Source: an uncultured Candidatus Saccharibacteria bacterium
Lineage (GTDB): Bacteria; Patescibacteriota; Minisyncoccia; Phycocordibacterales; JAACPR01
NCBI GenBank assembly: GCA_964538855.1
Contig: CAZIEY010000003.1
Location: 34,435 to 98,434, forward strand
Reading direction: 5' to 3'
DNA length: 64,000 bases
Positions 35,835 to 51,091 of this stretch are shown here, in pieces. The notes beneath the pieces are model-generated. The model was not told the origin of the DNA. It made no database searches and worked only from the letters and a program-made list of their open reading frames with translations. How positions within the stretch are numbered: the first letter of the stretch is position 1; each line of letters begins with the position of its first letter. The translations under genes and the position numbers were made by a program.

Positions 35835-36962
35835 TTAGTTACTCGACTTAATCTCTACGAGCACCCCATTTCTCACCTCGAATATTTTTACTGGTGTCTT
35901 TGCAACGGTGTGTTCTGAAGTAATTTCAAATCGTCCATTAAGCGTTTCGAATGAATGTGTTTCTATGTATGCCGGCACATCTTTTTTGTCGCTAGTATGT
36001 GCAATTGCTTCGGCAAGCATATAGATCGAATCGTAACTTTTATTAGCACCTCGTCGTGGCATTTCTCCGTATTTCGCAAAAAATGCTTTGCTAAATTCAT
36101 CAGATGGAATTTCCCAGTCGATCATGAGCGCACCTTCGAGATCTGCCTTATCTAACTCTTTGTTATTCACCACGTCGCGTAGTGTGGTATAACCGATAAT
36201 TGGTTTTGTGAAGCCGAGATTTTTTGCAATACTGAGGTACTTGATAATATCGAAATCGAGCATATCAAGAAACACCGCATCCATTTCCTCGTCTTTAATT
36301 TTTAAAACATTTGTTCGGAAATCACTCGTGCCTATACCCAAGTAAGTTTCAGTAATGAGAGGTGTGCTATTAACTTTTTTCATAATTGTCTCGAGCGTAG
36401 TTTGAATAGACTTAGAAAATCCAGACTCAAAACGAATCATACCAAGGTGTTGGATATTTCTGTCTCGAATGACACTCTCTAGTTCACTAATGACTTCGTC
36501 AAATTTTGGATACATGACAAAAGAGTACGAATTCATCTCAAGTGTCTCATCAATCGCAAAATTAACCGGTGACACGAGTGTGATTTGATTTTGCTCTGTG
36601 ATCGGAATGAGGGGTTGCAACGTGAAATCAAATATTCCGCCAATCACCGCGCTTACATTATTAACGTCGACCAATTTACGATACGCTGACAGGGAAGTTT
36701 TCGGATCAGTTGCGTCATCTTCAATTGAAAGTTCTACGAGTCTACCATTTACACCACCTCTCGTATTAATTTCATCGACTGCCATTTCCATCGCTTTTTT
36801 GGACATCGCACCGAAATCAGCTGCTACACCAGTCAGGGAAATAGATGCACCGATTTTAATAGGGGAGTTGTTCGCGACCTTAACATTTTTGTTGTAATTA
36901 AAAGCAAATCCAATAATTAGCACAACCGCAATCACCGCAATAATTTTGTTTATTTTTGTCAT
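35835..36962 (-). CDS. LivK-like (type I PBP, HAAT family) substrate-binding protein, paralog 1 of 7
   Basis: N-terminal TM anchor; 'IKIGASISLTGVAADFGAMSKKAMEMAVDEIN…YRKLVDVNNVSAVIGG'. Confidence 0.75.
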   Translation of the reverse strand: MTKINKIIAVIAVVLIIGFAFNYNKNVKVANNSPIKIGASISLTGVAADFGAMSKKAMEMAVDEINTRGGVNGRLVELSIEDDATDPKTSLSAYRKLVDVNNVSAVIGGIFDFTLQPLIPITEQNQITLVSPVNFAIDETLEMNSYSFVMYPKFDEVISELESVIRDRNIQHLGMIRFESGFSKSIQTTLETIMKKVNSTPLITETYLGIGTSDFRTNVLKIKDEEMDAVFLDMLDFDIIKYLSIAKNLGFTKPIIGYTTLRDVVNNKELDKADLEGALMIDWEIPSDEFSKAFFAKYGEMPRRGANKSYDSIYMLAEAIAHTSDKKDVPAYIETHSFETLNGRFEITSEHTVAKTPVKIFEVRNGVLVEIKSSN

Positions 36963-37020
36963 AATTTTTTATCTATTGCACATCATGCTACCTCATGGTA
37001 TATTAATTGTACATTATTCG

Positions 37021-37031
37021 TCGAATTTCGA
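37021..37031. promoter_or_regulatory. Palindrome tcgaa-t-ttcga in the divergent SBP/TrmB intergenic region (candidate operator)
   Basis: Seen directly in the sequence between 36962 and 37049. Confidence 0.3.
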
Positions 37032-37048
37032 AAAATAACCATAAAGTC

Positions 37049-37843
37049 ATGACAAATATACAAACTACTTTGGAAGGTCTTGGCATCAAGGGAACTGCCC
37101 AGACAGTTTTTAGTTATCTTGTTGAAAACGGCGTTTCGCCAGTTGCAAAAATTGCCTCAGGAATTCGCACTCCAAAATCTTCCATTTACAGCGCACTCGA
37201 AGAATTGGGTTCAATGGGTTTGATTATCGAATACAGTGAAAATCGAAGCAAAGAATATGGCATCATCGACGAGCAGCAACTCAAAGATTTGATTGATCAG
37301 CAAGTTCGCAACATGAAATCACATGAAAAAGCGCTGCTCGATTTTATGCAAAACTCTCATCAAAGTTCGCAAACAATCAAACCGAAAATCAAATTTTATA
37401 CTGGTATCGAGGGTATTCGCCAATCGTTTCGTGACATGCCTTGGCATAAAAATTGTAGAGAGACATACGTGATGTGGTCGACGAAAGACATGGTCGATAT
37501 TTTGACGCCCGAATTTAGCGAGTGGCACAGCTCGAAAAGATTGAAATATAAAATTATGCTTAATGCTATTCGTAAATACTCTGACAGAGCCATGAACGAC
37601 GATCCACAGAATAAAAAGTTGTTGCAAAGCGAAGCTTGGACTGCCCAGAGAGAAGTGCGATATGCTCCAAAAAATACTGAATGGACCATGAGCTATTGGA
37701 TTTATGGCGACAAGTGCCATTTTTCGAGTGGCGCTGGCGAAAAGTTTGCTTTCATTATTCATAGTCAGGAATTTGCCGATCTTATGCTTGTTTTGTGGCA
37801 AAATATATGGAAAGTTTCGACCCTCGATTTTGTGGCGAAGTGA
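37049..37843 (+). CDS. TrmB-family transcriptional regulator (wHTH + C-terminal ligand domain), paralog 1 of 5
   Basis: 'LEGLGIKGTAQTVFSYLVENGVSPVAKIASGIRTPKSSIYSALEELGSMGLI' is a TrmB-type wHTH. Confidence 0.6.
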   Translation: MTNIQTTLEGLGIKGTAQTVFSYLVENGVSPVAKIASGIRTPKSSIYSALEELGSMGLIIEYSENRSKEYGIIDEQQLKDLIDQQVRNMKSHEKALLDFMQNSHQSSQTIKPKIKFYTGIEGIRQSFRDMPWHKNCRETYVMWSTKDMVDILTPEFSEWHSSKRLKYKIMLNAIRKYSDRAMNDDPQNKKLLQSEAWTAQREVRYAPKNTEWTMSYWIYGDKCHFSSGAGEKFAFIIHSQEFADLMLVLWQNIWKVSTLDFVAK

Positions 37844-37881
37844 GTTTGCTTTCACGCTGGGGCAATAGTAATATTGTATAT

Positions 37882-39006
37882 ATGAAAAAAGCAATATGGG
37901 GAGCAGTAATTTTAATAGTAATTGTGCTTTTAGTGGTTTCTAATAAGAAGGACAATAGCGATAAAGGACCAATTAGAATTGGTTTTATTTCACCATTATC
38001 AGGTGACGCTGCATCATATGGTGATCCAGTTAAAAAGGGTGTTGAAATTGCCGTCGATGAAATTAATATGAAGGGTGGCGTTGATGGGCGACCATTCGAA
38101 GTCATTTATGAGGATGGTAAATGTAACAATAAAGACGCGACTAGTGCCGCTCAAAAATTGATTTCAATCGATAAGGTTAAAGTTATTATTGGTATGATAT
38201 GCAGTGGTGAATTATTGTCTGCTGCACCAGTTGCTGAAACTGCAAAAGTTATTTTGATTGGTCAAGGCTCGAGCCCAGATATTACAAAGGCCGGCGATTA
38301 TATCTTTAGAACTTTCCCGAGTGATTCTCAGGTTGGTGTGGCTCTTGTCGATCACATGCTTACAAAGAAGTTTGAGAAAGTTGCTGTGGTATCTGGCAGT
38401 TCCGCATACTCAATTGGTTTGAAAAACTTTTTCCTTGATGTAGCGAAGGAAAAGAATCTCGATGTTGTTTTTTCAGAAGATACTCTTGCTGATACGGTTG
38501 ACTTTAGAACTATTTTACAAAAAGTTAAAGTCACAAATCCATCTGCTTTGTTTGTAAATCCACAAACTGGGCAGGCAGCAGCTCGTATGGTTGAGCAGGC
38601 AAGAGCGTTAGGAATTAACTCCCAATTCTACGGAGCTTACTTTACAGGACCGGAATTTATCAAGATCGGTGCGGCAGTAGAAGGGACATTTATTGCAGAT
38701 GCACCTTCGCTTGATTCTTCAAACCCACGAATCGTCTCATTTAAGGAAGCAACACAAAAGAGATATGGTTCAGAACCTGATTACCTATTCTTTGGAGCAA
38801 ATGCGTACGATCAGGTGTATTTAACCGCGGCCATGTTTAAAGAGGTTGGTACTGAAAACACTGATAAAATGAAAGCGTGGTTATATGGAGTTAAAGATTT
38901 TGACGGTATTTCTGGCAAATTTGGTTTCGATTCAAATGGTGATGTGACAGGGATTAGTATGCGATTGGTCCAGGTAAAGAATGGAGAAATCGTACCTGCT
39001 CAGTAG
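37882..39006 (+). CDS. LivK-like substrate-binding protein, paralog 2
   Basis: 'IRIGFISPLSGDAASYGDPVKKGVEIAVDEINMKGGVDGRP…AQKLISIDKVKVIIG'. Confidence 0.75.
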   Translation: MKKAIWGAVILIVIVLLVVSNKKDNSDKGPIRIGFISPLSGDAASYGDPVKKGVEIAVDEINMKGGVDGRPFEVIYEDGKCNNKDATSAAQKLISIDKVKVIIGMICSGELLSAAPVAETAKVILIGQGSSPDITKAGDYIFRTFPSDSQVGVALVDHMLTKKFEKVAVVSGSSAYSIGLKNFFLDVAKEKNLDVVFSEDTLADTVDFRTILQKVKVTNPSALFVNPQTGQAAARMVEQARALGINSQFYGAYFTGPEFIKIGAAVEGTFIADAPSLDSSNPRIVSFKEATQKRYGSEPDYLFFGANAYDQVYLTAAMFKEVGTENTDKMKAWLYGVKDFDGISGKFGFDSNGDVTGISMRLVQVKNGEIVPAQ

Positions 39007-39030
39007 GATAGTGTTGTATAATAGTCAGGC

Positions 39031-39903
39031 ATGTCCTCAATCATCCCGCAACTCATCGTCAATAGTATCATCGCTGGCTCGATTTATTCGCTCGTGGCGC
39101 TCGGCTTCAATTTGATTTTTGGAGCGACCAAGTTTTTCAATTTGGCGCACGGAGTGATTGTGACGATTGGTGGTTACGGCGTCTTTTTCTTGTCAAAGCA
39201 GATGGGGCTTGATGTCTCTCTTTCGATTTTTATTTCGGTCATTTTTGCGGGTCTCGTCGGTTACGCCACCGAAAAATTGATTTTCCAAAAGATGCGTAAT
39301 AAAAAAGCTTCGGGCATGATTATGCTCGTGGCGTCGCTTGGTCTTTTGACGGCGATTCAGGCGATTGTCGCAATTCTTTTCACGAGCCAATTCCAGACCC
39401 TCTCACGCAACGTCGGAACGACCCGCGTCTACGAAATTGGCGGAGGTATTATCACACAAGTGCAGCTCATCATTTTGTGTACCTCGATTGCGATTATGGT
39501 GGTGCTCGGTCTCGTCATCAAGAAAACAAAATTCGGCAAGGCAGTCCAAGCAATCGGTGACGATGTAGAGGTCGCAAAGATCGTCGGTATCAACACGAAT
39601 AAAATTATCGGATATGTATTTTTCATTGGATCTGCTATTGCGGGAATTGCCGGTATTGCGGTTGGTTTTGACACTGGACTCGAGCCTGTCATGGGCTTGA
39701 ACCTGCTTTTGAAAGGCGTCATCGCATCAATTATCGGTGGTGTGGGTAGCGTGTCCGGTGGAGTTCTCGGCGCGTTTCTGCTCGGTTTCGTCGAAAACTT
39801 CGGTATTTGGAAAATTTCCGGTGAATGGAAAGATGCAATTGCGTTCGGGCTTCTCATTATCTTTTTGATTTTTAGACCTGATGGGATTTTTAAGAGGAAG
39901 TAA
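39031..39903 (+). CDS. livH: Branched-chain amino acid ABC transporter permease LivH-like
   Basis: 'NSIIAGSIYSLVALGFNLIFGATKFFNLAHG' is typical of LivH. Confidence 0.8.
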   Translation: MSSIIPQLIVNSIIAGSIYSLVALGFNLIFGATKFFNLAHGVIVTIGGYGVFFLSKQMGLDVSLSIFISVIFAGLVGYATEKLIFQKMRNKKASGMIMLVASLGLLTAIQAIVAILFTSQFQTLSRNVGTTRVYEIGGGIITQVQLIILCTSIAIMVVLGLVIKKTKFGKAVQAIGDDVEVAKIVGINTNKIIGYVFFIGSAIAGIAGIAVGFDTGLEPVMGLNLLLKGVIASIIGGVGSVSGGVLGAFLLGFVENFGIWKISGEWKDAIAFGLLIIFLIFRPDGIFKRK

Positions 39904-40005
39904 TCTGCCGCATCTACGAATTCACATCTGAATTTATCCCAAGTCTAAAGAAAGACTTTAGAACTTTTTTAAAGAAACTTCATATCGAATTCGTATAATG
40001 GGCAG

Positions 40006-40542
40006 GTGTTTAATAAAGATGAGATTAACTCTAATAAGACAGGTCGTCTTGGAATTTTTATCGATGAAGCGAATTTGTATTATTCCCAAAAAACTTTGGG
40101 ATGGAAAATAGGGTACGAGGAGTTAAAGAATTATTTATCTGTTGGTACGGCTTCTCAATTACGAATATATATCGCCACTGTGAAAAATGGATTGAGTCAG
40201 ACAAATTTATTAAATAAATTAAAGAATTTAGATTTTACAATTATCTCTAAAAACCTTAAATTAATTAAGGCTTTAAATAGAGACTTGATTTCAAAGGGTA
40301 ATTTAGATATCGAACTCGCACTAGACGCGTATATACTAAAAGATTCTTTCGACACATTTGTTTTATTTTCAGGAGATTCGGATTTTGCGTATCTCGTTGA
40401 TTTACTTAAAAAAGAAGGTAAAAAGATAATTACATTTTCTACGAAGGAACATATTTCTAGAGAATTAATCACTCGTAGTGATTTGTATGTAGATTTGAGA
40501 AAATTGCGGAGCGAATTGGAATATCTTACGTCTGATGTATAA
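40006..40542 (+). CDS. NYN-domain (LabA-like/DUF88, PIN-like) protein, paralog A
   Basis: Acidic core motifs 'GIFIDEANLYY', 'DIELALDAY', 'LFSGDSDFAYLV'. Own -10 (TATAAT at 39984-39989). Confidence 0.65.
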   Translation: MFNKDEINSNKTGRLGIFIDEANLYYSQKTLGWKIGYEELKNYLSVGTASQLRIYIATVKNGLSQTNLLNKLKNLDFTIISKNLKLIKALNRDLISKGNLDIELALDAYILKDSFDTFVLFSGDSDFAYLVDLLKKEGKKIITFSTKEHISRELITRSDLYVDLRKLRSELEYLTSDV

Positions 40543-40552
40543 GCAGCAAATC

Positions 40553-40580
40553 CTGCAAGTTTTGGCTCGCAGGATTCCTG
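40553..40580 (+). terminator. Hairpin (8-bp stem aatcctgc/gcaggatt, 12-nt loop) after the NYN gene; weak T tract
   Basis: Seen directly in the sequence. Followed by TGTATAAT at 40612-40619, which overlaps the livM start. Confidence 0.35.
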
Positions 40581-40617
40581 TTTGTAACGCTCGTATATTA
40601 TAGCAACCTATTGTATA

Positions 40618-41505
40618 ATGTCAAACATGGAATATTTCATACACCTCGGCATATTAATCGCGATTTGGTCCATCTTGGCCTTCAGCTTGAACTTGGTTAT
40701 TGGCTACACTGGCCTGTTGTCGATTACGCACGCGGCATTTTTTGGAATCGGTGCGTACGGAACCGCGATCCTAATGACGGAGCATGACTGGAACTTTTTT
40801 ATGGCGGCACTCATCGGCGTAATTGTCTCGATGATTCTTGCGGGCATTTTCGGCATGATTTTGGGGCGCTTCAAGGGCGATTATTATGCGCTCGCCTCGT
40901 TCGGATTCAACATCATTGTGTTTAGTGTCTTCTTGAACTGGCAAGAACTGACTCGCGGACCTCTCGGCATTCCGGGCATTCATCGTCCAGAAATTGATCT
41001 CGGATTTTTTGATTTTGTGTTCAAGTCAAACATCAGCTTCCTCATTCTCGCCGCATTTACCGCGTGGATTGTGTACGTGATTTCGTGTTATATCGTTGAT
41101 TCTTCGTTCGGGCGCGTGCTCAAGGCGATTCGTGAGGACGAGCAGGCGATTTCGGTGTTCGGTTACAATACCGCCGTGTATAAAATGTTTATTTTCGTCA
41201 TCAGCGCAGGCCTCGCCGCGGTTGCAGGTGCACTCTTTGCGACATACATTACGTTCATCGATCCTTCGACATTCAGTCTCTCCGAATCGATTTTCATTCT
41301 CGCGGTTGTCATTCTCGGAGGTCTCGCCAATCACAAGGGCGTTTTCTGGGGCACAGTCTTTCTCATCCTTTTGCCCGAAATTTTGCGCTTCGTCGGCTTC
41401 CCGACAGACATCGCAGCCCAAATGCGCCAAGTCGTCTACGGTGTACTGCTCGTCGTTTTGATGATGTACAGACCGAATGGGTTGATGGGGGAATATAAGT
41501 TGTAG
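40618..41505 (+). CDS. livM: Branched-chain amino acid ABC transporter permease LivM-like
   Basis: 'LNLVIGYTGLLSITHAAFFGIGAY' is typical of LivM. The start may instead be the second ATG at 40627 (possibly leaderless). Confidence 0.8.
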   Translation: MSNMEYFIHLGILIAIWSILAFSLNLVIGYTGLLSITHAAFFGIGAYGTAILMTEHDWNFFMAALIGVIVSMILAGIFGMILGRFKGDYYALASFGFNIIVFSVFLNWQELTRGPLGIPGIHRPEIDLGFFDFVFKSNISFLILAAFTAWIVYVISCYIVDSSFGRVLKAIREDEQAISVFGYNTAVYKMFIFVISAGLAAVAGALFATYITFIDPSTFSLSESIFILAVVILGGLANHKGVFWGTVFLILLPEILRFVGFPTDIAAQMRQVVYGVLLVVLMMYRPNGLMGEYKL

Positions 41506-41512
41506 AGACAAA

Positions 41513-42289
41513 CTAGGAGTTATTTTTTACAGGTAGAGAAGTGGGTTCAAGCGATTTCCAAATATACATAAACAGTTTGGTCAACATATCTGCCACGATT
41601 TTCGATTCGATAATAATTGAATAAGGTTCATTTTCTTTGAAAGAGAAGAAGTATGTTGTATCACCAATCACATTCATTGAACCACCGAATGCACTATTAT
41701 CAATGATTTCTCGAGTTTCTCGGAACTCGTCAGTTTTATAGTGCTCATTTTTCAGTATGTCTTTTGGTCCAATGAGATACGTAAAAGCTTTTGTTAATTT
41801 ATTTTTTCTTTTTCGCCACTCTGGAAAAAATCTGGGCAAGATATTTATTAAGTCAGATTCGAATACTGAATATACCAATTTGGTCTTATTTTTAATCATG
41901 GTATCGAGATTGTGTTCAAAAGTTTGTTTCAAACCTTCTACACCGACGAATATTTTCGTTTTTGGATTATCTTTATCCAGCTTATACATATTAGAAAGGT
42001 CGCCAAATATTTCGTTTAGTATGATTTCTTTATTTTTTAAAATTTGTTTTAAGCGATCTGGATTTTCAGCAGAGTAGTGAATTACATTATTTTTCTTCCA
42101 ACTCGAGACTAGTCCTTGAGACTCTAATTCCAATAGTAAGTTGTAAACAGTGGTTCTCGGAATCTTTGTGCCAGTTGCGACTTTATATACTGGTATATCT
42201 CTGTTTCTCAATAGAAACGTATATATTTGGGCAGATTTCTCACTAACACCGATTTCCGATAGTTTTTTAGATATGTCTTTCATATTCAT
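41513..42289 (-). CDS. TrmB-family transcriptional regulator, paralog 2
   Basis: 'LSEIGVSEKSAQIYTFLLRNRDIPVYKVATGTKIPRTTVYNLLLELESQGLV'. Confidence 0.6.
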   Translation of the reverse strand: MNMKDISKKLSEIGVSEKSAQIYTFLLRNRDIPVYKVATGTKIPRTTVYNLLLELESQGLVSSWKKNNVIHYSAENPDRLKQILKNKEIILNEIFGDLSNMYKLDKDNPKTKIFVGVEGLKQTFEHNLDTMIKNKTKLVYSVFESDLINILPRFFPEWRKRKNKLTKAFTYLIGPKDILKNEHYKTDEFRETREIIDNSAFGGSMNVIGDTTYFFSFKENEPYSIIIESKIVADMLTKLFMYIWKSLEPTSLPVKNNS

Positions 42290-42292
42290 ATA

Positions 42293-42311
42293 CTGTCATA
42301 TAAATGGACAG
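42293..42311. promoter_or_regulatory. Inverted repeat ctgtc-N9-gacag in the divergent TrmB/SBP intergenic region
   Basis: Seen directly in the sequence. Confidence 0.3.
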
Positions 42312-42437
42312 CAGTAAATGGGTATTTAAATATGGAATATAAGGTTAAATCGACCGCAGATTAATTATAGTGGTATTTTAGTGACATAAAGTCTCGCTCG
42401 GTATATCATTGTGAGTAATTATAAGTAATATAAATTT

Positions 42438-43487
42438 ATGAACAAAAAATACCTTACGGGTCTTGTCGTTGTCATTTTGATTGTAGGCTTTTTTATATTT
42501 TCTAACAGGGATACAGACACAATTAAGATTGGTGTAGTTGCCCCTCTAAAATCTGGCGCAACAATTTACGGCGATAACTTGGTTAAAGGGTTAGAGCTCG
42601 CCAAGAAAGATCTGGGTGATCGTGCGGCGAATTATGAAATCATTGTCGAAGATGATGAGGGTAACATTGCAAAATCTGCTTCCGCCGCACAGAAATTAAT
42701 TAACATCGATAAGGTCGCTGCTATTGTTACGGTAACTTCCGGAACTGGTAGCGCGGTAGATAAAATTGCAAAAGATGCGGGAATTCCTCACATCTGCGAT
42801 TGTGTGGTGACTACCATTGCTGGTGAGACGACATTTTTGTATAGTGCTCTTCCACAAGATGAAGCAAAACGCTGGTTAGAAGAAGCTAAAAACCAGAATC
42901 TTTCAAAAGCTTTTTTGATTATTCAAAATCAACCAGGCGCGAATTTGTTGGGTGAGGAGGTCAAGAATCATGCTCGAGATTACGGTATTACTATTGTAGG
43001 TGAAGAAAGAATTGATCCAGCCAATAAAGATTTTCGAACCGAGGTTTCTAAGATGAAGCTTGTACCGGCTGATATTTATATGACTATTGTATTTCCTCCG
43101 ACACTTGATATTTTGGCTAGAGAGATGACTTTGCAACAGATTACTAATTTCAGCTCGAATGGTCTTTTGGCCATTACAGCCGACCTCTCTTTGTTTGAGG
43201 GTCAGTGGTATACCGATAACTTCCTCTCAGATGTTGCATACCAGGCGCAATTTACTAAAGAATACCCAAACACTCGATTTAACGCGCGAACCGCACCGCA
43301 CGGATACGACATATTCAATTTGATTGTACGTGGAACCGAATCTGGTAATCTTGCTGAATATCTCAAAAATTTGAACGAGTATGACGGTAAAGTCGGCAAG
43401 GCTGTGAAAGGTGAAAACAAAAATATTTTCACTTTGCCAATTGGGATTTGGACAGTGAAAGACGGGAAGACTGTGTTAGTGAAGTAG
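42438..43487 (+). CDS. LivK-like substrate-binding protein, paralog 3
   Basis: 'IKIGVVAPLKSGATIYGDNLVKGLELAKKDL…AQKLINIDKVAAIVT'. Confidence 0.7.
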   Translation: MNKKYLTGLVVVILIVGFFIFSNRDTDTIKIGVVAPLKSGATIYGDNLVKGLELAKKDLGDRAANYEIIVEDDEGNIAKSASAAQKLINIDKVAAIVTVTSGTGSAVDKIAKDAGIPHICDCVVTTIAGETTFLYSALPQDEAKRWLEEAKNQNLSKAFLIIQNQPGANLLGEEVKNHARDYGITIVGEERIDPANKDFRTEVSKMKLVPADIYMTIVFPPTLDILAREMTLQQITNFSSNGLLAITADLSLFEGQWYTDNFLSDVAYQAQFTKEYPNTRFNARTAPHGYDIFNLIVRGTESGNLAEYLKNLNEYDGKVGKAVKGENKNIFTLPIGIWTVKDGKTVLVK

Positions 43488-44294
43488 TTCTCGCATCAGC
43501 TTATTATGATCAATCTTCTTGCTCGAATGTTTAACATATTCAAACATATCGCGCAGGAGATTTGTCATATTATCGTTCGTGATTTCAATTGCGACTTTAT
43601 CCTTCCAATTGATTAGCAAAGTTGTAGTTTTGAAAATCCATATTTCAGCGTGATGATTAAAAACTGTGTCTGGAAATACCGCATAGTCTGCCATACGCCC
43701 ACCGAGACTCTCGATGTGGGCTTTGAATTTCGTCGGGTCGCTTTTTATTTCATTGGCATATGATATGTAAGCACTTTCGTTGAGCATTCCGTCAATGATA
43801 ATTTTATTTTTAATAATCGCTTGATTAAACGCAATTATTTGTTTAGGAGTTGCAGTTTCTGCCTGGTCATTAAATGATGTGTGATGTTGTATTGCTTTAA
43901 CACGATCGTTGGTAAGCTCGAGGGCAATTCTTTTAAACGCAGGAACAATTTCCTCTGGTCCAACATGAATAATGAACTCATCTTTAGGGGAGAGTTTGAT
44001 TTTCGCACCTTTCTTATTGAGAGAATTCATCTGTATCTTGTCGATAGTGAGTGATAATTTGTGCATAAGTCTCTCTGCAGTAATCGCTATGTAAAATCTC
44101 CGCTTACCGTGTAGCTGGTAGTCAATTAATTCGTCCTTCAATAATCGTTTAATCGCATAATTAATACCGGTTCGCGATAGGGACGTAAGTGATGCAATTT
44201 CTTGCACACTATGATCGGTTTGAAGTGTATTTAAGATAGTTATCTCGGTGTCACTCAAATTCAGGATACTAAGCGTGTTTTTTGACCATATCAT
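43476..44294 (-). CDS. TrmB-family transcriptional regulator, paralog 3 (more divergent)
   Basis: wHTH 'LNTLQTDHSVQEIASLTSLSRTGINYAIKRLLKDELI'. Overlaps the 3' end of SBP3 by 12 nt (convergent). Confidence 0.55.
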   Translation of the reverse strand: MIWSKNTLSILNLSDTEITILNTLQTDHSVQEIASLTSLSRTGINYAIKRLLKDELIDYQLHGKRRFYIAITAERLMHKLSLTIDKIQMNSLNKKGAKIKLSPKDEFIIHVGPEEIVPAFKRIALELTNDRVKAIQHHTSFNDQAETATPKQIIAFNQAIIKNKIIIDGMLNESAYISYANEIKSDPTKFKAHIESLGGRMADYAVFPDTVFNHHAEIWIFKTTTLLINWKDKVAIEITNDNMTNLLRDMFEYVKHSSKKIDHNKLMRELLH

Positions 44295-44312
44295 TGAAAT
44301 AAGTATATAAAA

Positions 44313-44329
44313 TGACTAAAAATTAGTCA
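44313..44329. promoter_or_regulatory. Palindrome tgacta-N5-tagtca in the TrmB/cupin divergent region
   Basis: Seen directly in the sequence. Confidence 0.3.
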
Positions 44330-44478
44330 ATATAATATATTAAAAAACCTTTACCTAGCAACATTAGAATATAATTACAGCATAAAAATATACTTTGACA
44401 AGACATTATTAAGGTTGTCTGGTATTCTTTTTGTAGGTCGTAATATATTGTGAAAATCAAGTGAATGGCCTGTAAATT

Positions 44479-44958
44479 ATGACAATACATACTAAAGAAA
44501 AAGCTACAGTTGTAAGAGGGATTGAAGCTCTACAAAAGTTCGTTCCTTTTTTAGCAGAGCGTGCAAAAGCTATAGAGACTCCGTGTGAAGGATTCGCCAC
44601 AATTCAACTTGGTCCATTCAGCGGTGATCAAGATGGTATAACTGGCGCATCAATTGTTGAACTTGAAGTTGGTGGTGAACATCCACAACACAAACATGAT
44701 GAATCTGAAAATACATTCTACTTCATTCATGGCAAAGGTTTCGTAATCCTTGGTGATGATCAGGAAAAGATACCTTACGCAGCAGGTTCAGTAATTAAAG
44801 CTCCTCGCGGAGTACTGCATGGTTTTCAGGCACTCGAAGATGGGATTATGCTCGCACTACATAAAGGTGGTCCGATTATAAGACCTGATGGTACAATGGA
44901 TATACACTACACAGATCCGCGCTGCTTTACAGAGCACGGCACAGTAGGTGGAGATTAA
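44479..44958 (+). CDS. Cupin-domain protein, paralog A
   Basis: 'GEHPQHKHDESENTFYFIHGKGFVILGDDQEKIPYAAGSVIKAPRGVLHGF' carries cupin motifs 1 and 2. Confidence 0.6.
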   Translation: MTIHTKEKATVVRGIEALQKFVPFLAERAKAIETPCEGFATIQLGPFSGDQDGITGASIVELEVGGEHPQHKHDESENTFYFIHGKGFVILGDDQEKIPYAAGSVIKAPRGVLHGFQALEDGIMLALHKGGPIIRPDGTMDIHYTDPRCFTEHGTVGGD

Positions 44959-44981
44959 AAATACACATAACTTATATAAAA

Positions 44982-46073
44982 TTGATGACTAAAAATATTA
45001 AAATAATTATTCTTGTGATTGTGTGTGCGATTGTCGCTGCGGTAATATTGCAACGCGATGACAAAGCACATTCGATTACACTCGGTCTCATGTTGCCACT
45101 TACTGGTGACTATGCAGCCGCTGGTCAAAATATGCAAAAAGGTATGGAAGTCGCTTTGGATCAATACCGAAAGGAAAATCCAGATGCTTCTATTAAAGTA
45201 GTTATCGAAGATGATGCGTATGATGCAAAAAAAGGTGTCAGCGCTTATAAAAAATTGGTTGACTTGGATAAGGTTGATGCAATTTTGATGCTCTCAACGC
45301 CGGTTATCGACGCAATACATGAAGACGTGGTTGCGCGAGGTATCCCAGTAATACAGCTCGGTGTGCAGACGGTTGGAGTTGCAGATGACAACATCATTCA
45401 ATTCAGTCCTGCTGCAGAAGCACCGATCGGATTTCTTGCGACATATTTGAGCGATAGTCCTGAATATACTGGCAAAAAAGTTGCGGTGATATATGACAAT
45501 TTGTCCGCGCAAATTAGTTTCTTTGAAGCCTTCAAACAAAACTTCAAACAAGAATTTACTCCATTTATAGTGAATGGTAAGGATGACTTGAGAAATTATG
45601 CAACAAAAATCGCAAATGAAAATTACGATGTTGTCGTAGTAATCGAATCTCCAGCAAACGGCGCACTTTTCGCGAAGGAGTTACTCACGTTAGACTCAAC
45701 AATGCCAGTGCTTGCATTCGATGCTCAGTTGCAAACAGGTTTTGCTGACTTCACCAGAATTTTGGGCGATACGAATAAAATCAACGGTGCAAAATCAATG
45801 TGGTTCAAGTCAGGAAAAATGGATGTGCTTACTGATCTCTACCAGAAAAAGTACGGAGAAGCTCCTGGTTTCGTCGTTGACTTTTCTTACGACATGATTA
45901 ACGTGGCACTCGCGACGTATGACGCGAACGACGCTGATTGGATCAAGAACTTGAAAAAGTTTAGCGATGCAAACGGTGCGTCAGGTTCAATATCCTTCGA
46001 TAAGAACGGTGTGCGAATTCAGCCGATGGTGATTACAGAAGTGCGAAATGGGGTATTGGTGCCGACTGAATAA
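44982..46073 (+). CDS. LivK-like substrate-binding protein, paralog 4
   Basis: 'ITLGLMLPLTGDYAAAGQNMQKGMEVALDQY…YKKLVDLDKVDAILM'. Confidence 0.7.
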   Translation: MMTKNIKIIILVIVCAIVAAVILQRDDKAHSITLGLMLPLTGDYAAAGQNMQKGMEVALDQYRKENPDASIKVVIEDDAYDAKKGVSAYKKLVDLDKVDAILMLSTPVIDAIHEDVVARGIPVIQLGVQTVGVADDNIIQFSPAAEAPIGFLATYLSDSPEYTGKKVAVIYDNLSAQISFFEAFKQNFKQEFTPFIVNGKDDLRNYATKIANENYDVVVVIESPANGALFAKELLTLDSTMPVLAFDAQLQTGFADFTRILGDTNKINGAKSMWFKSGKMDVLTDLYQKKYGEAPGFVVDFSYDMINVALATYDANDADWIKNLKKFSDANGASGSISFDKNGVRIQPMVITEVRNGVLVPTE

Positions 46074-46081
46074 AGATCTAG

Positions 46082-46140
46082 AAGAGGTTATAACAAAAAG
46101 AAGGTTCATAATTTGAATCTTCTTTTTGTTATAACCTCTT
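46082..46140. repeat. 22-bp perfect inverted repeat (15-nt loop) between convergent genes; bidirectional terminator-like
   Basis: aagaggttataacaaaaagaag / cttctttttgttataacctctt. Confidence 0.65.
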
Positions 46141-46692
46141 TGTATACCAAGCTCTACCTGTATCTGCGGGCCACATATTATCTTTTTTAAATCCTATAGA
46201 TTCGTGCATGCCGATTGATCGCACATTATTGTCACGTATACTAGCAATCATTCCAACACATCCAGTCTCTTGGAAAAACTCATCCGCTCTTGCGTTCAGA
46301 TACTTAGCTATTGTGGTGTTTATTTGGTCAAGTTTCTTGCCACGATACGTAGGTTCGACAAAAATCCAAACTATGTTACCGAATTTCTCTCCATTTGTAG
46401 AATTTGTTATCTCGCGTGCTTCGAGTGTCCCAATCAGTTGACCAGAATTATCTTTGAACGTTAAGACTTTGACTGACCCGTCTTCTATCTTTTTTTGAAA
46501 AATATCTGGAGATCTGTTGAGCGAAGCACTGCGTGCGTCTTCTTCCGAATACACATCGCGTGATTCTCGTATCATTCTAGAAAAGAAAACAAAATACTCC
46601 TGTAGGTCAGAAGGTGTTGCGGTCAGTACACCTTCTGACTGGTAGTCATTGCTCGGAATTATGTTTTGGTTCTGTTCTGGTCCTTGTTTCAT
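46129..46692 (-). CDS. GNAT-family N-acetyltransferase
   Basis: 'IVWIFVEPTYRGKKL…GMIASIRDNNVRSIGMHESIGF'. Start chosen at MKQGPEQ to avoid overlap with the upstream regulator. Confidence 0.55.
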   Translation of the reverse strand: MKQGPEQNQNIIPSNDYQSEGVLTATPSDLQEYFVFFSRMIRESRDVYSEEDARSASLNRSPDIFQKKIEDGSVKVLTFKDNSGQLIGTLEAREITNSTNGEKFGNIVWIFVEPTYRGKKLDQINTTIAKYLNARADEFFQETGCVGMIASIRDNNVRSIGMHESIGFKKDNMWPADTGRAWYTKRL

Positions 46693-46714
46693 ATAAATAA
46701 TAATAACATTAAAT

Positions 46715-47512
46715 CTACTTCGCATCCTTCCATAAATATTCAAAATTCTTACGAAACGCATCTACGATAATTGGGTGACGAATGCTGATTGCAATGGGAA
46801 TGTCGGCGACGATGGTGATGAGGACTTCGCGCGGAGTTGTATCAATTGCAAACGGTCCAAAATATTTCGAGGGCATTGATCGCATATCATAAATCGGAAT
46901 GCTTCGCCGGTCTTTTTTGAAAGTAGGGAAGAGGCTTTTTTCGACGAGTAGTCGCGCCTTTACCTTTTTATCAGCGAGACCTTTGTCCAGTTCAGAGAAG
47001 AATCGTCGCAAAGGGAGGTCATTAATAAAATATTTCGTATTGTATCCAACAATTGTCACATCTTCGCCGGGGCTCACATCGCGTACAAAGTGTTGAAATG
47101 CTTTTTTGAATCCATACGAACCTTCGAACACGTTGACGATGTTGCGAGCTCCTTCGATTTTCTTGGCATCTTCGACAAGCTCTGTAATTTCTTGCAATCG
47201 TTTTTGATGCTCGCCAAGCTCCTTGATTAATTGTACTGGCTCTTCGGCGCTGTAATATTTGATGTTGTTTTTGACTTCATATGAGACCAGTCCGCGGGTG
47301 AGGAGGTTCCGCAGAGATTGATAGACTGCGGAACTGCCGATTTTTGTCAGAGAAATAATCGGGCCAGTTTTTGAACGTGGGTGATGTACGAGAAATAAAT
47401 ACACTGCAATATCATTTGGAAACAAACCAATTTGTCCGAGTGTTGACTTGATATTACTCTCCAATAATGCAGAGTTTGCTATATTTTCCATACTGCATAT
47501 AATACCTGCCAT
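46715..47512 (-). CDS. TrmB-family transcriptional regulator, paralog 4
   Basis: 'LGQIGLFPNDIAVYLFLVHHPRSKTGPIISLTKIGSSAVYQSLRNLLTRGLV'. An alternative start lies at 47491. Confidence 0.55.
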   Translation of the reverse strand: MAGIICSMENIANSALLESNIKSTLGQIGLFPNDIAVYLFLVHHPRSKTGPIISLTKIGSSAVYQSLRNLLTRGLVSYEVKNNIKYYSAEEPVQLIKELGEHQKRLQEITELVEDAKKIEGARNIVNVFEGSYGFKKAFQHFVRDVSPGEDVTIVGYNTKYFINDLPLRRFFSELDKGLADKKVKARLLVEKSLFPTFKKDRRSIPIYDMRSMPSKYFGPFAIDTTPREVLITIVADIPIAISIRHPIIVDAFRKNFEYLWKDAK

Positions 47513-47520
47513 ACTAAATT

Positions 47521-48672
47521 ATGTCAAATAACAATATGAAAAAATATACATGGGGAATCATAGCGGTGCTTGTGTTGGGTGCGATATTCGTGATGAATAA
47601 TCGTCCGGCAAAAGACGTGTCTGGTGAGCCAATTAAAATCGGCAGTATTTCTGCTTTAACTGGAGCAGGCTCTGCAATTGGTGAAGCAGAACGTCGCGGT
47701 GCGCAACTTGCCATCGACGAAATCAATGAGAATGGCGGAGTCTTGGGTCGACCTTTGCAATTAATTTCTGAGGACGTTTCAATTGATAAAATTAAAAATG
47801 CCGTGACGGTAACTCAAAAACTTATCAATATAGACAAAGTTATTGCGATTGTTGGTCCGCAATGGGATGAGCCGGCAGAACCGATTTTGCCTTTAATTGA
47901 AGCCGCAAAGATTCCTATGGTTGGTCCAGACACGTCTGATCAACTTGAAAAAGATACGAATTACGATTACTTTTTCTCGACATGGTATGACAATCGAGTC
48001 GGTATTCGTGAATTATTGCGATACGCTCAAAGAGAAAATATAAAAGAGTTTACAATTATTCGGTTGCTAGATGCGAGCTTTTGGAAGTTTACAGCTGACA
48101 TATTTACGAACGAAGCTCCGAATTATGGCGTGAAAATTGTCGATGATATTAATCTTGGAAATCCTTTGGTTCAAGACTTCAGAACAGTTATTACAAAAAT
48201 TAAAAGTCAAAAATCAGAGGCTGTGTTTGTGGTAACAAGCGATTACAATCAATGTACACTGTTAAAGCAAATGGACGACCTCGCGCTCAACGTACTTTCT
48301 TTTGGAACCGAATCGTCTGGCGACAGTGTGTCGCTTACTAATTGTCCGCAATCTCTAGAACGACGTGTATTCAGTACTCCAGTTAAAACAAAAAGCCAAA
48401 TTGAATTCGAGGAGAAGTTCGAGGCAAAATATGGTTCCAAGCCAGAATATCCTTCGATTGTAACTGCGTATGATGCGGTACGTGTGATTGCTGATGCCTT
48501 GCGTCGATCAAAATTGGAGGGAGGTGAAGCATTACAAAAAGCAATTGCTGAAACCAATATGCCAGGTGCAGCGGTGCCGGTGATTAAATTCAACGAGAAG
48601 GGTTTTCTTCAAACTCCAGAAGATGCGTTTGAAATGAAGACGGTGCGAGAAGGTGAGTTCGTACAGATTTAG
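47521..48672 (+). CDS. LivK-like substrate-binding protein, paralog 5
   Basis: 'IKIGSISALTGAGSAIGEAERRGAQLAIDEINENGGVLGRP…TQKLINIDKVIAIVG'. An alternative start lies at 47536. Confidence 0.7.
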   Translation: MSNNNMKKYTWGIIAVLVLGAIFVMNNRPAKDVSGEPIKIGSISALTGAGSAIGEAERRGAQLAIDEINENGGVLGRPLQLISEDVSIDKIKNAVTVTQKLINIDKVIAIVGPQWDEPAEPILPLIEAAKIPMVGPDTSDQLEKDTNYDYFFSTWYDNRVGIRELLRYAQRENIKEFTIIRLLDASFWKFTADIFTNEAPNYGVKIVDDINLGNPLVQDFRTVITKIKSQKSEAVFVVTSDYNQCTLLKQMDDLALNVLSFGTESSGDSVSLTNCPQSLERRVFSTPVKTKSQIEFEEKFEAKYGSKPEYPSIVTAYDAVRVIADALRRSKLEGGEALQKAIAETNMPGAAVPVIKFNEKGFLQTPEDAFEMKTVREGEFVQI

Positions 48673-48673
48673 A

Positions 48674-49480
48674 TTATTTCTGCGCCGCACCTTTCCACGA
48701 TAACTCAAAAATCATGCGCATCATGTCATGGATAGCCTTATCTTGGATAATAGTACCTGTCATTGAATCTGGATTGAGGTTTACAATTGAAATTTTGTCT
48801 TCACCGTACACAGTGATTTCTCCGTGGACCAAAAATTGATCCTTGGATACAAAACGTAATTCGGGCCAGTATTTTTCTGAGACACCAATTTGTTTGTATT
48901 TCTCTAATATAAATGCCGAGCCGTGATCTGAAGCCGGCACAATGCCTCTTGTGTGTATACGCTTTTTCTCTTTTGCTTTACGATATGTCACAGATAATTC
49001 GTGCTGCATAAAATTCTCGAGGTATTCCGTGTTAGACCACGCCAACATTTCGTATGGCTTTTCAACATTAATATGATCCTCGAATACTTTGAGGATGCCA
49101 TCGAAACCTTCGAAATAGGTAACTTTCTGTTTGTGCGCACTGAATGCGTAAATACTTTCGAGTGTTGGTATGGTGCTCTCGGCTTTCTCTAATTGATCTT
49201 GAGAAATTTTCACACGATCTTTGAGATAGCGGGTGATGCGTTGTGGATGTTCGACATGGTAAAAAATTTTATTTTTCTTTTCTATTTCATTAACCAAACC
49301 TTTGACGGATAAATCCAAGAGGATTTTATATACTGTGCTGCGATTGATTTTTGTCACCTCAGCAATTTTGGAAGGGTAGGCACCACCGAGATGGAGCAGT
49401 GCTGAATATATAGAAGCTTCTTTATCGGTTAGACCAAGTTTATTGAGTTTACTCTGTATGCTTGATTGCGATGTTTCCAT
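48674..49480 (-). CDS. TrmB-family transcriptional regulator, paralog 5
   Basis: 'LNKLGLTDKEASIYSALLHLGGAYPSKIAEVTKINRSTVYKILLDLSVKGLV'. Confidence 0.6.
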   Translation of the reverse strand: METSQSSIQSKLNKLGLTDKEASIYSALLHLGGAYPSKIAEVTKINRSTVYKILLDLSVKGLVNEIEKKNKIFYHVEHPQRITRYLKDRVKISQDQLEKAESTIPTLESIYAFSAHKQKVTYFEGFDGILKVFEDHINVEKPYEMLAWSNTEYLENFMQHELSVTYRKAKEKKRIHTRGIVPASDHGSAFILEKYKQIGVSEKYWPELRFVSKDQFLVHGEITVYGEDKISIVNLNPDSMTGTIIQDKAIHDMMRMIFELSWKGAAQK

Positions 49481-49494
49481 GTCTCCATTATCTC

Positions 49495-49520
49495 AAGAAT
49501 TGGTAAAACTGTCAATTCTT
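49495..49520. promoter_or_regulatory. Inverted repeat aagaattg-N10-caattctt in the TrmB/SBP divergent region
   Basis: Seen directly in the sequence. Confidence 0.3.
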
Positions 49521-49656
49521 ACGAACAAAATATGCAACATATCTTTTATACGTTGATAAATAAGAATATATAATGCTTGATATGTTATTAAAAAATACAG
49601 CACTGAGTTTTCATTGTATAGTATTTCACGTAGATATTACAAATAAGCATTATTAT

Positions 49657-50736: not shown

Positions 50737-50750
50737 ATAAGTAATAAAAA

Positions 50751-50775
50751 ACCGCCTTCGTAGGTGGTTTTTTGT
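50751..50775 (+). terminator. Rho-independent terminator
   Basis: accgcc-ttcgta-ggtggt followed by TTTTTG. Confidence 0.55.
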
Positions 50776-50806
50776 TGATTGACATACACAATCCATCGTA
50801 TATACT

Positions 50807-51091
50807 ATGGATATGAAAACGATGGTAAACATAAAGCTTGATAAAAAGCTTAAAAATCAAGCCTCAAAATTAGCGGAACAAATGGGGTTTAATCTCTCAT
50901 CGATTATTTCTGCGACACTTCGACAATTTGTGGTAAACAAGGAAATCAGTATTTCTCTCAAACCCAAAATGACTCCTTATTTAGAATCGATTATTTCGGA
51001 TGTTAAAAAAGAAAGACAATCGGACAAATCTCCAGTATTCAAAAATGCCACAGAGGCTATTGCGTGGTTGAGACGGCATGTGAAGTCATAA
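50807..51091 (+). CDS. dinJ: DinJ/RelB-family antitoxin (type II toxin-antitoxin system)
   Basis: 'VNIKLDKKLKNQASKLAEQMGFNLSSIISATLRQFV' parallels DinJ 'RIDEDLKNQAADVLAGMGLTISDLVRITL'. Confidence 0.65.
   Translation: MDMKTMVNIKLDKKLKNQASKLAEQMGFNLSSIISATLRQFVVNKEISISLKPKMTPYLESIISDVKKERQSDKSPVFKNATEAIAWLRRHVKS

Follow-up and report, generated by a model that had tools for sequence, protein, structure and literature searches.

We found that a small gene for a predicted NYN-domain ribonuclease (NYN A), carried in the genome of an uncultivated Paceibacteria (CPR) bacterium, is met at its stop codon by a predicted small-RNA gene on the opposite strand, and that a second, divergent NYN gene (NYN B) in the same 64-kb stretch of DNA (hereafter the window) has a similar neighbour. 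This putative convergent small-RNA gene is a conserved partner of the NYN gene, and the pairing recurs in dozens of uncultivated bacteria in an arrangement that, on sequence grounds, resembles RNA-controlled toxin-antitoxin modules. Stand-alone NYN proteins (LabA-like, COG1432) number in the thousands and are listed as 'function unknown' in the main classification of the PIN-like superfamily. The conserved RNA partner would give a first concrete, testable handle on them, in the form of two small RNA families with defined promoters and terminators, and it leads to the prediction that the RNA limits expression of the nuclease. The NYN A locus has the following features.

39031-39903: livH, the upstream neighbour of NYN A
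39994-39999, plus strand: NYN A -10 box TATAAT, 6 nt upstream of the GTG, with a weak -35 (2/6)
40006-40542, plus strand: NYN A coding sequence, GTG start, 178 aa; PF01936; predicted Mg2+-dependent PIN-like/NYN ribonuclease of the COG1432 LabA-like group
40538-40586: hairpin common to both predicted convergent transcripts, core arms 40549-40559 and 40566-40576, overlapping the NYN A stop codon
40540-40590, minus strand: predicted small RNA A, ~45-50 nt, made up of the hairpin and, on its 5' side, a short tail (..GUUACAAAC..); antisense to the NYN A transcript at its 3' end
40597-40624, minus strand: predicted small RNA A promoter, -35 TTGACA (40624-40619), 16-nt spacer and TG-n-TATAAT (-10 at 40602-40597), a 12/12 match
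40614-40619, plus strand: livM -10 box TATAAT, 7 nt upstream of the ATG at 40627, conserved in relative locus L003
40627-41505: livM, the downstream neighbour of NYN A

A sequence-only reading of this DNA had assigned 40006-40542 to the NYN family, and a profile search bore this out (Pfam NYN, PF01936: E 4.9e-23, 82.7 bits, cutoff 24.2). The acidic core proposed with it is present, and D20, N23, D101, D107, D124 and D126, including the 'SGDSD' motif, are invariant in a 28-sequence family alignment. An AlphaFold model of NYN A (pLDDT 86, pTM 0.83) found its best structural matches in 2qip (E 6e-12, TM 0.73/0.80) and the MARF1 NYN domain, which together with the Pfam match and the acidic residues agrees with the earlier description of a PIN-like, LabA-like predicted RNase. 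NYN A is thus a genuine member of the NYN family, a predicted ribonuclease with its acidic site intact and a confidently modelled NYN fold. In these respects it is like the LabA-like NYN.COG1432 group (2qip VPA0982; Synechococcus LabA), from which the CPR forms differ as minimal single-domain proteins with a predicted convergent small-RNA gene. That group has been classed as 'function unknown' with no RNA partner described, and in 2017 nuclease function had been studied for no PF01936 representative (PMC5499597); a 2018 paper reports RNase activity of MARF1 (PMC6217404). Our literature search returned no paper linking NYN proteins with antisense RNAs, type I systems or CPR. Comparison with the ortholog in L003 gave a dN/dS of 0.165 for NYN A, ~4 times that of the adjoining genes, showing that purifying selection acts on the gene.

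The -10 box of NYN A lies so close to the GTG that a leaderless mRNA is implied. The string cgaattcg-TATAAT, pointed out earlier, does exist, with CGAATTCG at 39986-39993 directly upstream of the TATAAT, although it had been placed 10 nt too low. L003 keeps the TATAAT and the start position (ATG there), and the GAATTC palindrome upstream of it shows no conservation in that locus. The claim that the gene has its own promoter holds as far as the -10 box goes, but nothing about it is special: in 29 of the 65 window genes, including livH, livM and livF, the start codon has a -10 box 4-10 nt upstream and no Shine-Dalgarno sequence, against 0-4 of 53-63 in internal controls. Among NYN-A relatives, 25/59 have this layout. 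When promoters were compared, the -35 boxes were weak at NYN genes, whereas the convergent RNA promoter was strong.

The hairpin following NYN A folds with -22.5 kcal/mol (z -3.6), and L003 forms an equivalent structure from a different sequence (-23.9 kcal/mol, z -5.1). It had been noticed before as an 8-bp stem, correctly so, but the opposite-strand small RNA gene had been missed: read on the minus strand, the hairpin at 40538-40586 is the predicted terminator stem of small RNA A. The ends of this RNA are placed from the promoter and hairpin positions, with the start near 40590 set by the -10 box. The candidate promoter is the one perfect TTGACA-16-TATAAT site in the 64 kb, where 0.02 would be expected, and L003 keeps it; the U-tract of the window's small RNA A is poor (GCAGGAUUUGCUGCUUAU). 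The livM -10 box overlaps the small RNA A -35 box by 1 nt, so that two divergent promoters would occupy almost the same DNA, and the gene call in relative locus L001 starts livM at the equivalent of 40627. Rfam 15 covariance models gave no match at E<=1 in 39850-40700 and none at E<=0.1 in 12 related loci; across the whole window five tRNA matches alone reached gathering scores, with none for small RNA B.

The convergent unit proved to be a strand-specific property of the family as a whole. An antisense promoter matching at >=10/12 positions within 150 nt past the stop was found for 50/59 NYN-A relatives. The sense strand gave such a match for 3/59 and shuffling for 8.2 on average, while 11 of 608 other genes in the same loci (1.8%) had one. 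A hairpin with U-tract was present in 49 of the 51 convergent units examined, the window's own among them, and the predicted RNAs of NYN-A units have a median length of 41 nt. Model R1 of the RNA returned 25 matches with E<0.01 in 861 kb, some at loci outside the training set, and every one of them lay opposite the NYN strand and abutted a NYN stop. It does not recover the window's small RNA A, because the sub-class of that RNA is divergent. Covariation within the modelled A-type sub-class was strong (95% paired, 8/9 pairs with compensatory change), a result reached by 0/500 shuffles. The tail of A-type RNAs carries the motif UCA[A/U]AC, part of which is the reverse complement of the Val-stop codon pair where the ORF reads through the hairpin, so its conservation may reflect coding constraint.

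The unit was absent from other genes of related kind or position, namely the 280-aa NYN forms of Chlorobiaceae and the unrelated PF05635 genes in the livH-livM gap of relatives. NYN genes on rhizobial megaplasmids (36% identity) had no clear antisense promoter of the sigma-70 type, and alpha-proteobacterial promoters differ from that type. An unbiased scan of 581 kb of liv loci for a strong promoter, short RNA and terminator returned 13 units under a strict U-tract rule that also missed the window's own two; the two units inspected, a nusA leader (L084) and a terminator beside livH (L120), were both unrelated to NYN.

The second, divergent NYN paralog that had been proposed at 52219-52725 was confirmed by PF01936 (E 6.7e-16, 59.5 bits, cutoff 24.2); it is 27% identical to NYN A over 85 aa, and the 64-kb window holds no third NYN gene.

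51344-52135: livG; NYN B lies between it and a binding-protein gene
52207-52212, plus strand: NYN B -10 box TATAGT, 6 nt upstream of the GTG, kept together with the GTG in relative locus L164
52219-52725, plus strand: NYN B coding sequence, GTG start, 168 aa; PF01936, second, divergent NYN subfamily
52719-52777, minus strand: predicted small RNA B, ~55-60 nt, a conserved structured RNA overlapping the NYN B stop codon with its 3' end
52782-52809, minus strand: predicted small RNA B promoter, -35 TTGACT (52809-52804), 16-nt spacer, -10 TATAAT (52787-52782), an 11/12 match

NYN B carries motifs equivalent to the acidic core (D..N, NVDAD, SGDGD) and has at least 2758 relatives, mostly in CPR; in L164 the order livG, NYN B, binding protein is kept at 79% amino acid identity. 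The NYN-B family has the same layout as NYN-A with a different conserved RNA. Small RNA B reads ACGAAAAAG...CCGAACGG...GCCUAAGG...CUUUUUC-UUUU and is matched by covariance model R2 at 73 bits (E 4e-14). It is conserved in L164, L165 (two copies), L169, L174, L176 and L178, which represent several CPR classes, and its covariation (90% paired, 5 pairs with compensatory change) was reached by 0/500 shuffles. The covariance models also located an orphan B-type RNA gene within a toxin-antitoxin island, with its own promoter and no convergent NYN-B gene. A TTTTGACTTC repeat around NYN B, considered as a mark of insertion, turned out to be the small RNA B -35 box and a similar string after livG.

We give about even chances to the reading that NYN A and small RNA A form a compact, self-contained two-gene module, as NYN B and its RNA do separately, in which the RNase is under type I-like RNA control. 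The first gene would encode a stand-alone, metal-dependent NYN/PIN-like ribonuclease transcribed from an ordinary leaderless promoter consisting of a -10 box alone. The second, tiny and on the opposite strand, would have a near-consensus promoter (-35, -10 and often an extended -10), with the RNA starting some tens of nucleotides beyond the NYN stop and ending at an intrinsic terminator, hairpin plus U-tract, that abuts or overlaps this stop. Because the RNA gene lies over the NYN stop, the predicted small RNA has perfect complementarity to the NYN message at its 3' end, and one hairpin is common to both. Most likely, an abundant small RNA would pair with the 3' end of the NYN mRNA, beginning at the complementary terminator loops, and keep nuclease output low, probably through duplex-triggered decay or interference near the stop codon. 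The nuclease would then rise solely when the small RNA falls. We infer that the small RNAs are made and pair with the NYN message, and that the nuclease is harmful when unchecked.

The closest parallel is par(pAD1) Fst/RNA II, in which convergent promoters share a bidirectional terminator and the antitoxin is a ~40-nt RNA (PMC7472228). The NYN modules, as known from sequence, have the same two convergent promoters and one common terminator hairpin, and a strongly promoted ~40-nt RNA in the antitoxin position that would be complementary to the 3' end of the coding message. Like par, they occur in multiple copies, and chromosomal copies are embedded between transporter genes (PMC7472228). They differ in encoding a 170-190-aa NYN ribonuclease rather than the 30-aa membrane peptide of par, and in their hosts, which are CPR, Omnitrophota and similar rather than Firmicutes. 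They also differ from par in that no 5' direct-repeat complementarity was detected: duplex energies of cognate and non-cognate pairs showed no signal of complementarity between a small RNA and the 5' region of its NYN gene (mean rank 0.50, p 0.41), so the translation block of par is not reproduced. The bsrG/SR4 and txpA/RatA loci of B. subtilis are also convergent type I toxin-antitoxin loci, and type I toxins are normally hydrophobic peptides of <60 aa. NYN proteins depart from this in being soluble and 168-190 aa long, while the other hallmark, a cis-antisense RNA gene with promoter and terminator, is found at the level of sequence in 49-50 of the 59 relatives and in both window modules. SymE/SymR is a type I system with a nuclease-like toxin in which a cis-antisense RNA controls an RNA-cleaving protein, as is proposed for the NYN modules; however, SymE has an AbrB-like rather than a NYN fold, and SymR overlaps the 5' end of symE. 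VapC, a type II toxin found in small, mobile, multi-copy modules, shares the PIN-like metal-dependent RNase fold, but its antitoxin is a protein whose gene lies upstream in the same operon, and no such gene lies beside NYN.

The strongest competing view, still unlikely in our estimate, is that NYN A serves small CPR genomes as a housekeeping nuclease for RNA processing, its small RNA providing ordinary cis-antisense autoregulation with no part in toxicity, addiction or defence. Such a role would explain equally well the broad CPR conservation, purifying selection and stable synteny that we observed. Both NYN subfamilies are very widespread in CPR and well conserved across its classes (~45-60% identity), the low dN/dS of NYN A goes with a stable gene order in relatives, and many copies are found among genes for HisRS, GatCA, ribosomal proteins, SecDF and ClpP. 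Gene-neighbourhood work had moreover led to the suggestion of tRNA/rRNA processing for bacterial NYN proteins (PMC5499597). Several observations fit this poorly. Relatives contain truncated or frameshifted NYN copies as well as tandem copies, each with its own RNA, that adjoin a PemK gene and a SocA/Panacea gene, and NYN genes also cluster with RelB-YafQ genes. Most liv relatives have no NYN gene at the same site; in AT content and in rate of evolution NYN genes exceed their neighbours; and a genome carries at least two paralogous modules, a number that a single housekeeping enzyme would not need. The tandem and damaged copies, variable contexts, AT-richness and raised dN/dS amount to a toxin-antitoxin-like ecology and count in favour of the two-gene module.

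We hold it rather improbable that the small RNA acts on the NYN protein instead of the mRNA, as a pseudo-substrate inhibitor, a substrate or a guide, in the manner of a type III system or a cofactor. Type III systems (ToxIN, CptIN) also pair an endoribonuclease, which in the NYN modules is a predicted one, with a small structured RNA gene, but there the RNA is a run of tandem repeats preceding the toxin gene within one operon, on a common strand. In the NYN modules the predicted RNA gene is instead single, convergent and equipped with a promoter of its own, and no tandem-repeat RNA array was found around either NYN gene. Action on the protein would account for the B-type RNA, whose primary sequence is kept across CPR classes where the other strand is non-coding, something that pure antisense pairing would not require. 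The orphan B-type gene likewise suggests action in trans, and the RNA sub-classes differ between the NYN-A and NYN-B subfamilies. The stem sequences of A-type RNAs, by contrast, vary freely, and cis-antisense pairing better fits a terminator placed so strictly on the stop codon.

It is very improbable that there is no functional RNA at all and that the unit is a bidirectional terminator or insulator, whose promoter fires short transcripts merely to block read-through between NYN and its neighbours. A-type RNAs do consist of little beyond the terminator hairpin and an 8-12-nt tail, genomes with a promoter for each gene may need insulation, and in the window the RNA promoter overlaps that of livM. 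But the unit is missing from the other genes inserted at that junction, and from 98% of other genes generally. The B-type RNA is longer and conserved in sequence and structure, an orphan RNA copy is kept as a stand-alone gene, and a near-consensus -35/-10 would be costly to keep if its product were useless.

Beyond the modules of the window, we propose, tentatively and with less confidence than in the two-gene module itself, that the NYN genes and convergent RNAs of CPR and neighbouring uncultivated phyla are a new, widespread class of RNA-controlled toxin-antitoxin or stress/defence system. Its toxin would be a PIN-like enzyme, its antitoxin a 35-60-nt cis-antisense or protein-binding RNA, and it would comprise at least two ancient subfamilies with their own RNA families not in Rfam. 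The genomes of CPR bacteria are tiny, hardly any of their regulatory RNAs or toxin-antitoxin biology has been characterised, and a module with several copies per genome across many of their classes would be among the first RNA-based regulatory systems described there. PADLOC gave weak partial matches to HEC-09 and to PDLC01154, a generic 'NYN' model of 310 positions whose NYN domain was covered at E ~1e-7, and PHROGs gave weak matches to families of unknown function. Phage and viral collections are essentially devoid of the NYN family: GenBank phages had no match, and the 2.9 million contigs of IMG/VR contained one close NYN relative, with the RNA unit also present. No viral contig matched small RNA B in an exact-pattern scan.

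The position of both NYN genes in gaps of the liv cluster had been read as the outcome of insertion, and this was upheld by many relatives in which livH, livM, livG and livF are contiguous, indicating that NYN A and NYN B are insertions. The modules would thus have entered an ancestral contiguous livHMGF cluster, where they would be tolerated because nearly every gene has its own leaderless promoter, which would also explain how operons in these genomes can take up foreign genes harmlessly. Both insertions are old, as each NYN gene is found at the same site in a diverged relative at a dS of ~1 or more. The suggestion of a mobile or selfish insertion habit is accordingly left with mixed evidence: variable contexts, tandem copies with pseudogenes and AT-richness favour it weakly, and the age and synteny of both insertions speak against it. 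No convincing target-site duplications or terminal inverted repeats were found around NYN A.

The partnership with liv that had also been suggested, in which the transporter mRNAs would be processed or destabilised by NYN A and NYN B, is the least probable reading. In its favour, two NYN genes do sit in one liv cluster at sites kept in relatives, the small RNA A promoter overlaps that of livM, and the livH-NYN gap contains a long-range stem reaching to the NYN start. Against it, none of 80 loci holding NYN-A relatives has livH or livM within 6 kb, NYN is contained in only 2 of 80 liv loci that were collected independently (neither at the livH-livM junction), that junction is occupied by unrelated genes in other lineages, NYN neighbours across relatives are heterogeneous, and vertical inheritance of one locus explains the co-occurrence here. 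The NYN modules have no liv-specific function, and their position inside the cluster is historical rather than functional, a negative but useful result. The sole local side effect would be the predicted small RNA A promoter overlapping the livM promoter.

NYN genes are AT-rich relative to their flanks (median -5.6 GC points), and NYN A, at GC 0.30 (z -3), is the lowest of the window genes, followed in the low-GC group by genes for a YafQ toxin and a TrmB protein, NYN B and a RelB gene. A recent horizontal insertion as the origin of the GC drop was ruled out, since the same-site gene of L003 has a dS of ~1.75 and identity declines gradually rather than at sharp borders. Part of the GC contrast of NYN A comes from the liv core genes, which are the GC3-richest in the window.

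The ORF that the sequence-only reading had assigned to the NYN family between livH and livM is present and matches Pfam NYN, and the second, divergent copy proposed there likewise proved to be NYN:

40006-40542, + strand: NYN A, GTG start, 178 aa (PF01936, E 4.9e-23)
52219-52725: NYN B (PF01936, E 6.7e-16)

The two proteins share 27% identity over 85 aa, and no third NYN copy was found in the window. Alignment of NYN A with 27 relatives showed invariant residues D20, N23, D101, D107, D124 and D126. The AlphaFold model of NYN A (pLDDT 86, pTM 0.83) predicts a fold resembling the NYN structures 2qip (TM 0.73/0.80) and MARF1, and 2qip was also the sole sequence-level PDB match. The closest named relatives of the NYN proteins, and of CTP synthase, are from Paceibacteria/Patescibacteria MAGs. 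In the main classification of the PIN superfamily, this NYN group is listed as function unknown (PMC5499597).

The hairpin reported downstream of NYN A is real, but larger than had been described (~40538-40586, -22.5 kcal/mol, z -3.6), and its sequence context identifies it as the putative terminator of a convergent small-RNA gene, small RNA A. The promoter of this gene occupies the gap between NYN A and livM and reads into the NYN A 3' end:

40624-40597, - strand: small RNA A promoter, TTGACA-16-(TGc)TATAAT, 12/12 in the promoter scan

This is the sole 12/12 site in 64 kb (expected 0.02), and it is kept in L003, a related locus that carries the NYN A ortholog. An antisense promoter scoring at least 10/12 and located at most 150 nt past the stop was found in 50/59 short NYN-A relatives, compared with 3/59 for the sense-strand control, a shuffle mean of 8.2, and a convergent-promoter background of 1.8% among 608 other genes of the same loci. 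In 49 of the 51 promoter-anchored units (50 relatives plus the window), the predicted RNA runs from a short tail through a GC-rich hairpin to a U-tract, which adjoins or overlaps the stop codon of the NYN gene. The predicted A-type RNAs have a median length of 41 nt (range 34-84) and fall into two classes, with one or two hairpins. A covariance model built from one A-type sub-class (R1) gave 25 matches with E<0.01 in 861 kb, every one of them opposite an NYN gene with coordinates abutting its stop; these included loci outside the training set and one, L020, with a promoter score of only 8. Furthermore, the R1 helix was 95% paired, with 8/9 pairs compensatory (0/500 shuffles; slid controls low).

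In some relatives the NYN ORF extends through the terminator hairpin and ends in conserved C-terminal tails (e.g. ...EPDxPAPEV*), while it ends before the hairpin in close relatives whose RNA sequence is the same (3' ends compared in L016, L026, L027, L039, L008, L025, L068, L037 and L004). The same stretch of DNA therefore encodes protein in some genomes but not in others. Because many NYN ORFs end '...EV*' past the hairpin, the A-type tail motif may partly be kept for coding reasons.

NYN B has the same layout, with a different RNA; this RNA is predicted to be 55-60 nt long, and the stop of NYN B falls within its 3' arm and U-run:

52809-52804, - strand: small RNA B -35 box, TTGACT
52787-52782, - strand: small RNA B -10 box, TATAAT, after a 16-nt spacer

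The sequence AUACGAAAAGGGAUCCGAAAGGUGUUGGUGCCUAAGGAGCCCUUUUCUUUUU of small RNA B and variants of it are kept in relatives named Peregrinibacteria, Yonathbacteria and Paceibacterota. In an alignment of eight B-type sequences, 90% of cells were paired and five pairs were compensatory. Searching 938 kb with the corresponding covariance model (R2) recovered the window copy (52719-52777, 73 bits), L164, a related locus with NYN B, and one orphan in the related locus L002:

L002 7738-7797, - strand: B-type small-RNA gene with its own promoter and without a convergent NYN-B gene

The orphan lies in a toxin-antitoxin-like island (L002 6565-10918), which also holds an unknown 128-aa gene, an HTH/SocA_Panacea gene, two NYN modules and a PemK toxin gene, along with a third NYN gene that is 305 aa long and internally duplicated. 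Within the window, TTTTGACTTC occurs three times (52136-52145, 52820-52829 and 47269-47278; expected 0.32). One copy immediately follows the livG stop, and another supplies the 3' arm of a hairpin (52796-52835) that has the reverse complement of the small-RNA-B -35 as its 5' arm. These repeats are possibly a trace of the insertion of the NYN B module.

The convergent unit is specific to stand-alone NYN genes of the short form: both 280-aa Chlorobiaceae NYN relatives and PF05635 genes at the liv junction scored at background. The small RNAs had no match in Rfam. Five tRNA genes were identified in the window (three clustered at 9961-10807, the others at 17431-17503 and 28366-28436), and no other Rfam family reached gathering score there. 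In our literature search we came across no paper that connects NYN proteins with antisense RNAs, with type I systems or with CPR bacteria. The NYN-plus-small-RNA module is family-wide and previously undescribed, and would add a further variant to the toxin-like modules that are under antisense control.

We favour a mechanism in which a cis-antisense RNA, pairing with the 3' end of the NYN mRNA, would hold nuclease production in check, because the architecture is par-like and the ecology toxin-antitoxin-like. As in par(pAD1), where Fst and RNA II have convergent promoters, one shared terminator hairpin and an RNA of ~40 nt (PMC7472228), the NYN module has convergent promoters, one shared terminator hairpin and a predicted RNA of ~40 nt from a strong promoter, and the promoters of the NYN-family protein genes have only a weak -35. 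One chromosomal relative of par(pAD1) likewise lies between transporter operons (PMC7472228). Unlike classical type I systems, the NYN protein is an enzyme of 170-190 aa, and no cognate complementarity was found between the small RNA and the NYN 5' region. Read-through of the NYN ORF across the hairpin in many loci, with its possible coding constraint on the A-type tail, is a further departure from the classical type. The small RNA may instead act on the NYN protein, as the conserved sequence of the B-type RNA and its orphan copy in L002 suggest. In its ecology the module resembles a toxin-antitoxin element: NYN copies occur in tandem, each with its own predicted RNA, and truncated copies also occur; the genes are AT-rich (median -5.6 GC points vs flanks), their proteins evolve faster, and PemK, Panacea and RelB-YafQ genes accompany them. 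A housekeeping RNase under antisense autoregulation is a further possible reading of the convergent arrangement.

A partnership between NYN and liv, one of the possibilities raised from the sequence, was not supported: among 80 genomic loci with an NYN-A relative, not one had livH or livM within 6 kb, and only 2 of 80 liv loci (gathered via livM, 62-74% identity) contained any NYN, neither at livH|livM. CPR NYN neighbours were varied (HisRS, GatCA, ribosomal proteins, SecDF, ClpP, metal-resistance genes and toxin genes). Elsewhere, in other lineages, the livH|livM junction is a repeated landing site of unrelated small AT-rich genes. PF05635 four-helix-bundle ('23S rRNA intervening sequence') genes of 115-125 aa, AT-rich and of at least three sub-types, fill it in ~12/80 liv loci (L112, L113, L123, L125, L132-L134, L138, L140, L150, L159 and L162), and a membrane ORF and a binding-protein gene in one locus each.

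The liv cluster of the window is greatly expanded (35835-55186). Its single permease/ATPase set (livH, livM, livG, livF) is spread among seven genes for periplasmic binding proteins, five for TrmB-like regulators (most of these divergent from a binding-protein gene), two cupin genes and one GNAT gene; relatives have similar multi-binding-protein clusters. A third small accessory module of the cluster lies just upstream of livG and consists of genes for a RelB-like antitoxin (50807-51091) and a YafQ/ParE-like toxin (51064-51363), whose GC content is among the lowest in the window.

The two NYN genes had been read as insertions, and in most of the 80 liv loci livH and livM indeed abut or overlap, with contiguous livH-livM-livG-livF in many; the window arrangement is therefore derived. 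NYN A is the lowest-GC gene of the window (0.30, z -3), followed by the YafQ toxin gene, a TrmB gene, NYN B and the RelB gene. The four liv core genes are the GC3-richest (0.48-0.63 vs a mean of 0.38) and so stand apart both from the inserted genes and from the remainder of the contig:

39031-39903: livH
40627-41505: livM
51344-52135: livG
54461-55186: livF

The insertions are, however, not recent. L003, a 4.3-kb contig from a different sample, has the order TrmB-livH-NYN-livM, with protein identities to the window of 95% for livH, 94% for livM and only 69.5% for NYN, and nucleotide identity declines gradually with no sharp borders. For NYN A, dS was 1.75 and dN/dS 0.165, compared with a dN/dS of 0.04 for livH and livM. 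NYN B is syntenic in L164 (livG-NYN B-binding protein; 79% aa identity).

The promoter string assigned to NYN A exists, but its coordinates had been placed 10 nt too low:

39994-39999, + strand: NYN A -10 box TATAAT, 6 nt before the GTG

A TATAAT-like hexamer lies 4-10 nt before an in-frame start codon in 29/65 window genes, including livH, livM (true start ATG 40627) and livF, compared with 0-4 of 53-63 internal control positions (example starts: 1989, 20119, 26546, 33538, 39031, 40627, 48674(-), 54461 and 55194). Only 4/65 genes have a Shine-Dalgarno-like motif, and leaderless expression appears to be the norm in the window. An own promoter is therefore the rule, as for NYN A, and a gene inserted between two operon genes thus need not be polar.

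The livH-NYN A gap (39903-40007) can form a long-range stem (-29.8 kcal/mol, z -4.5) ending at the NYN start codon, its left arm lying within a 36-nt stretch missing in L003. On the other side of NYN A, the livM promoter, which has a -10 box only, overlaps that of small RNA A almost completely (40591-40627), the livM -10 sharing one base with the small RNA A -35:

39905-39923 and 39987-40005: arms of the livH-NYN stem
40614-40619, + strand: livM -10 box, on nearly the same DNA as the small RNA A promoter (40597-40624, - strand)

L003 has the same overlap, which suggests that the two initiations exclude each other. Because the two promoters occupy almost the same DNA, the insertion may have linked the start of livM transcription to the RNA promoter through competition.
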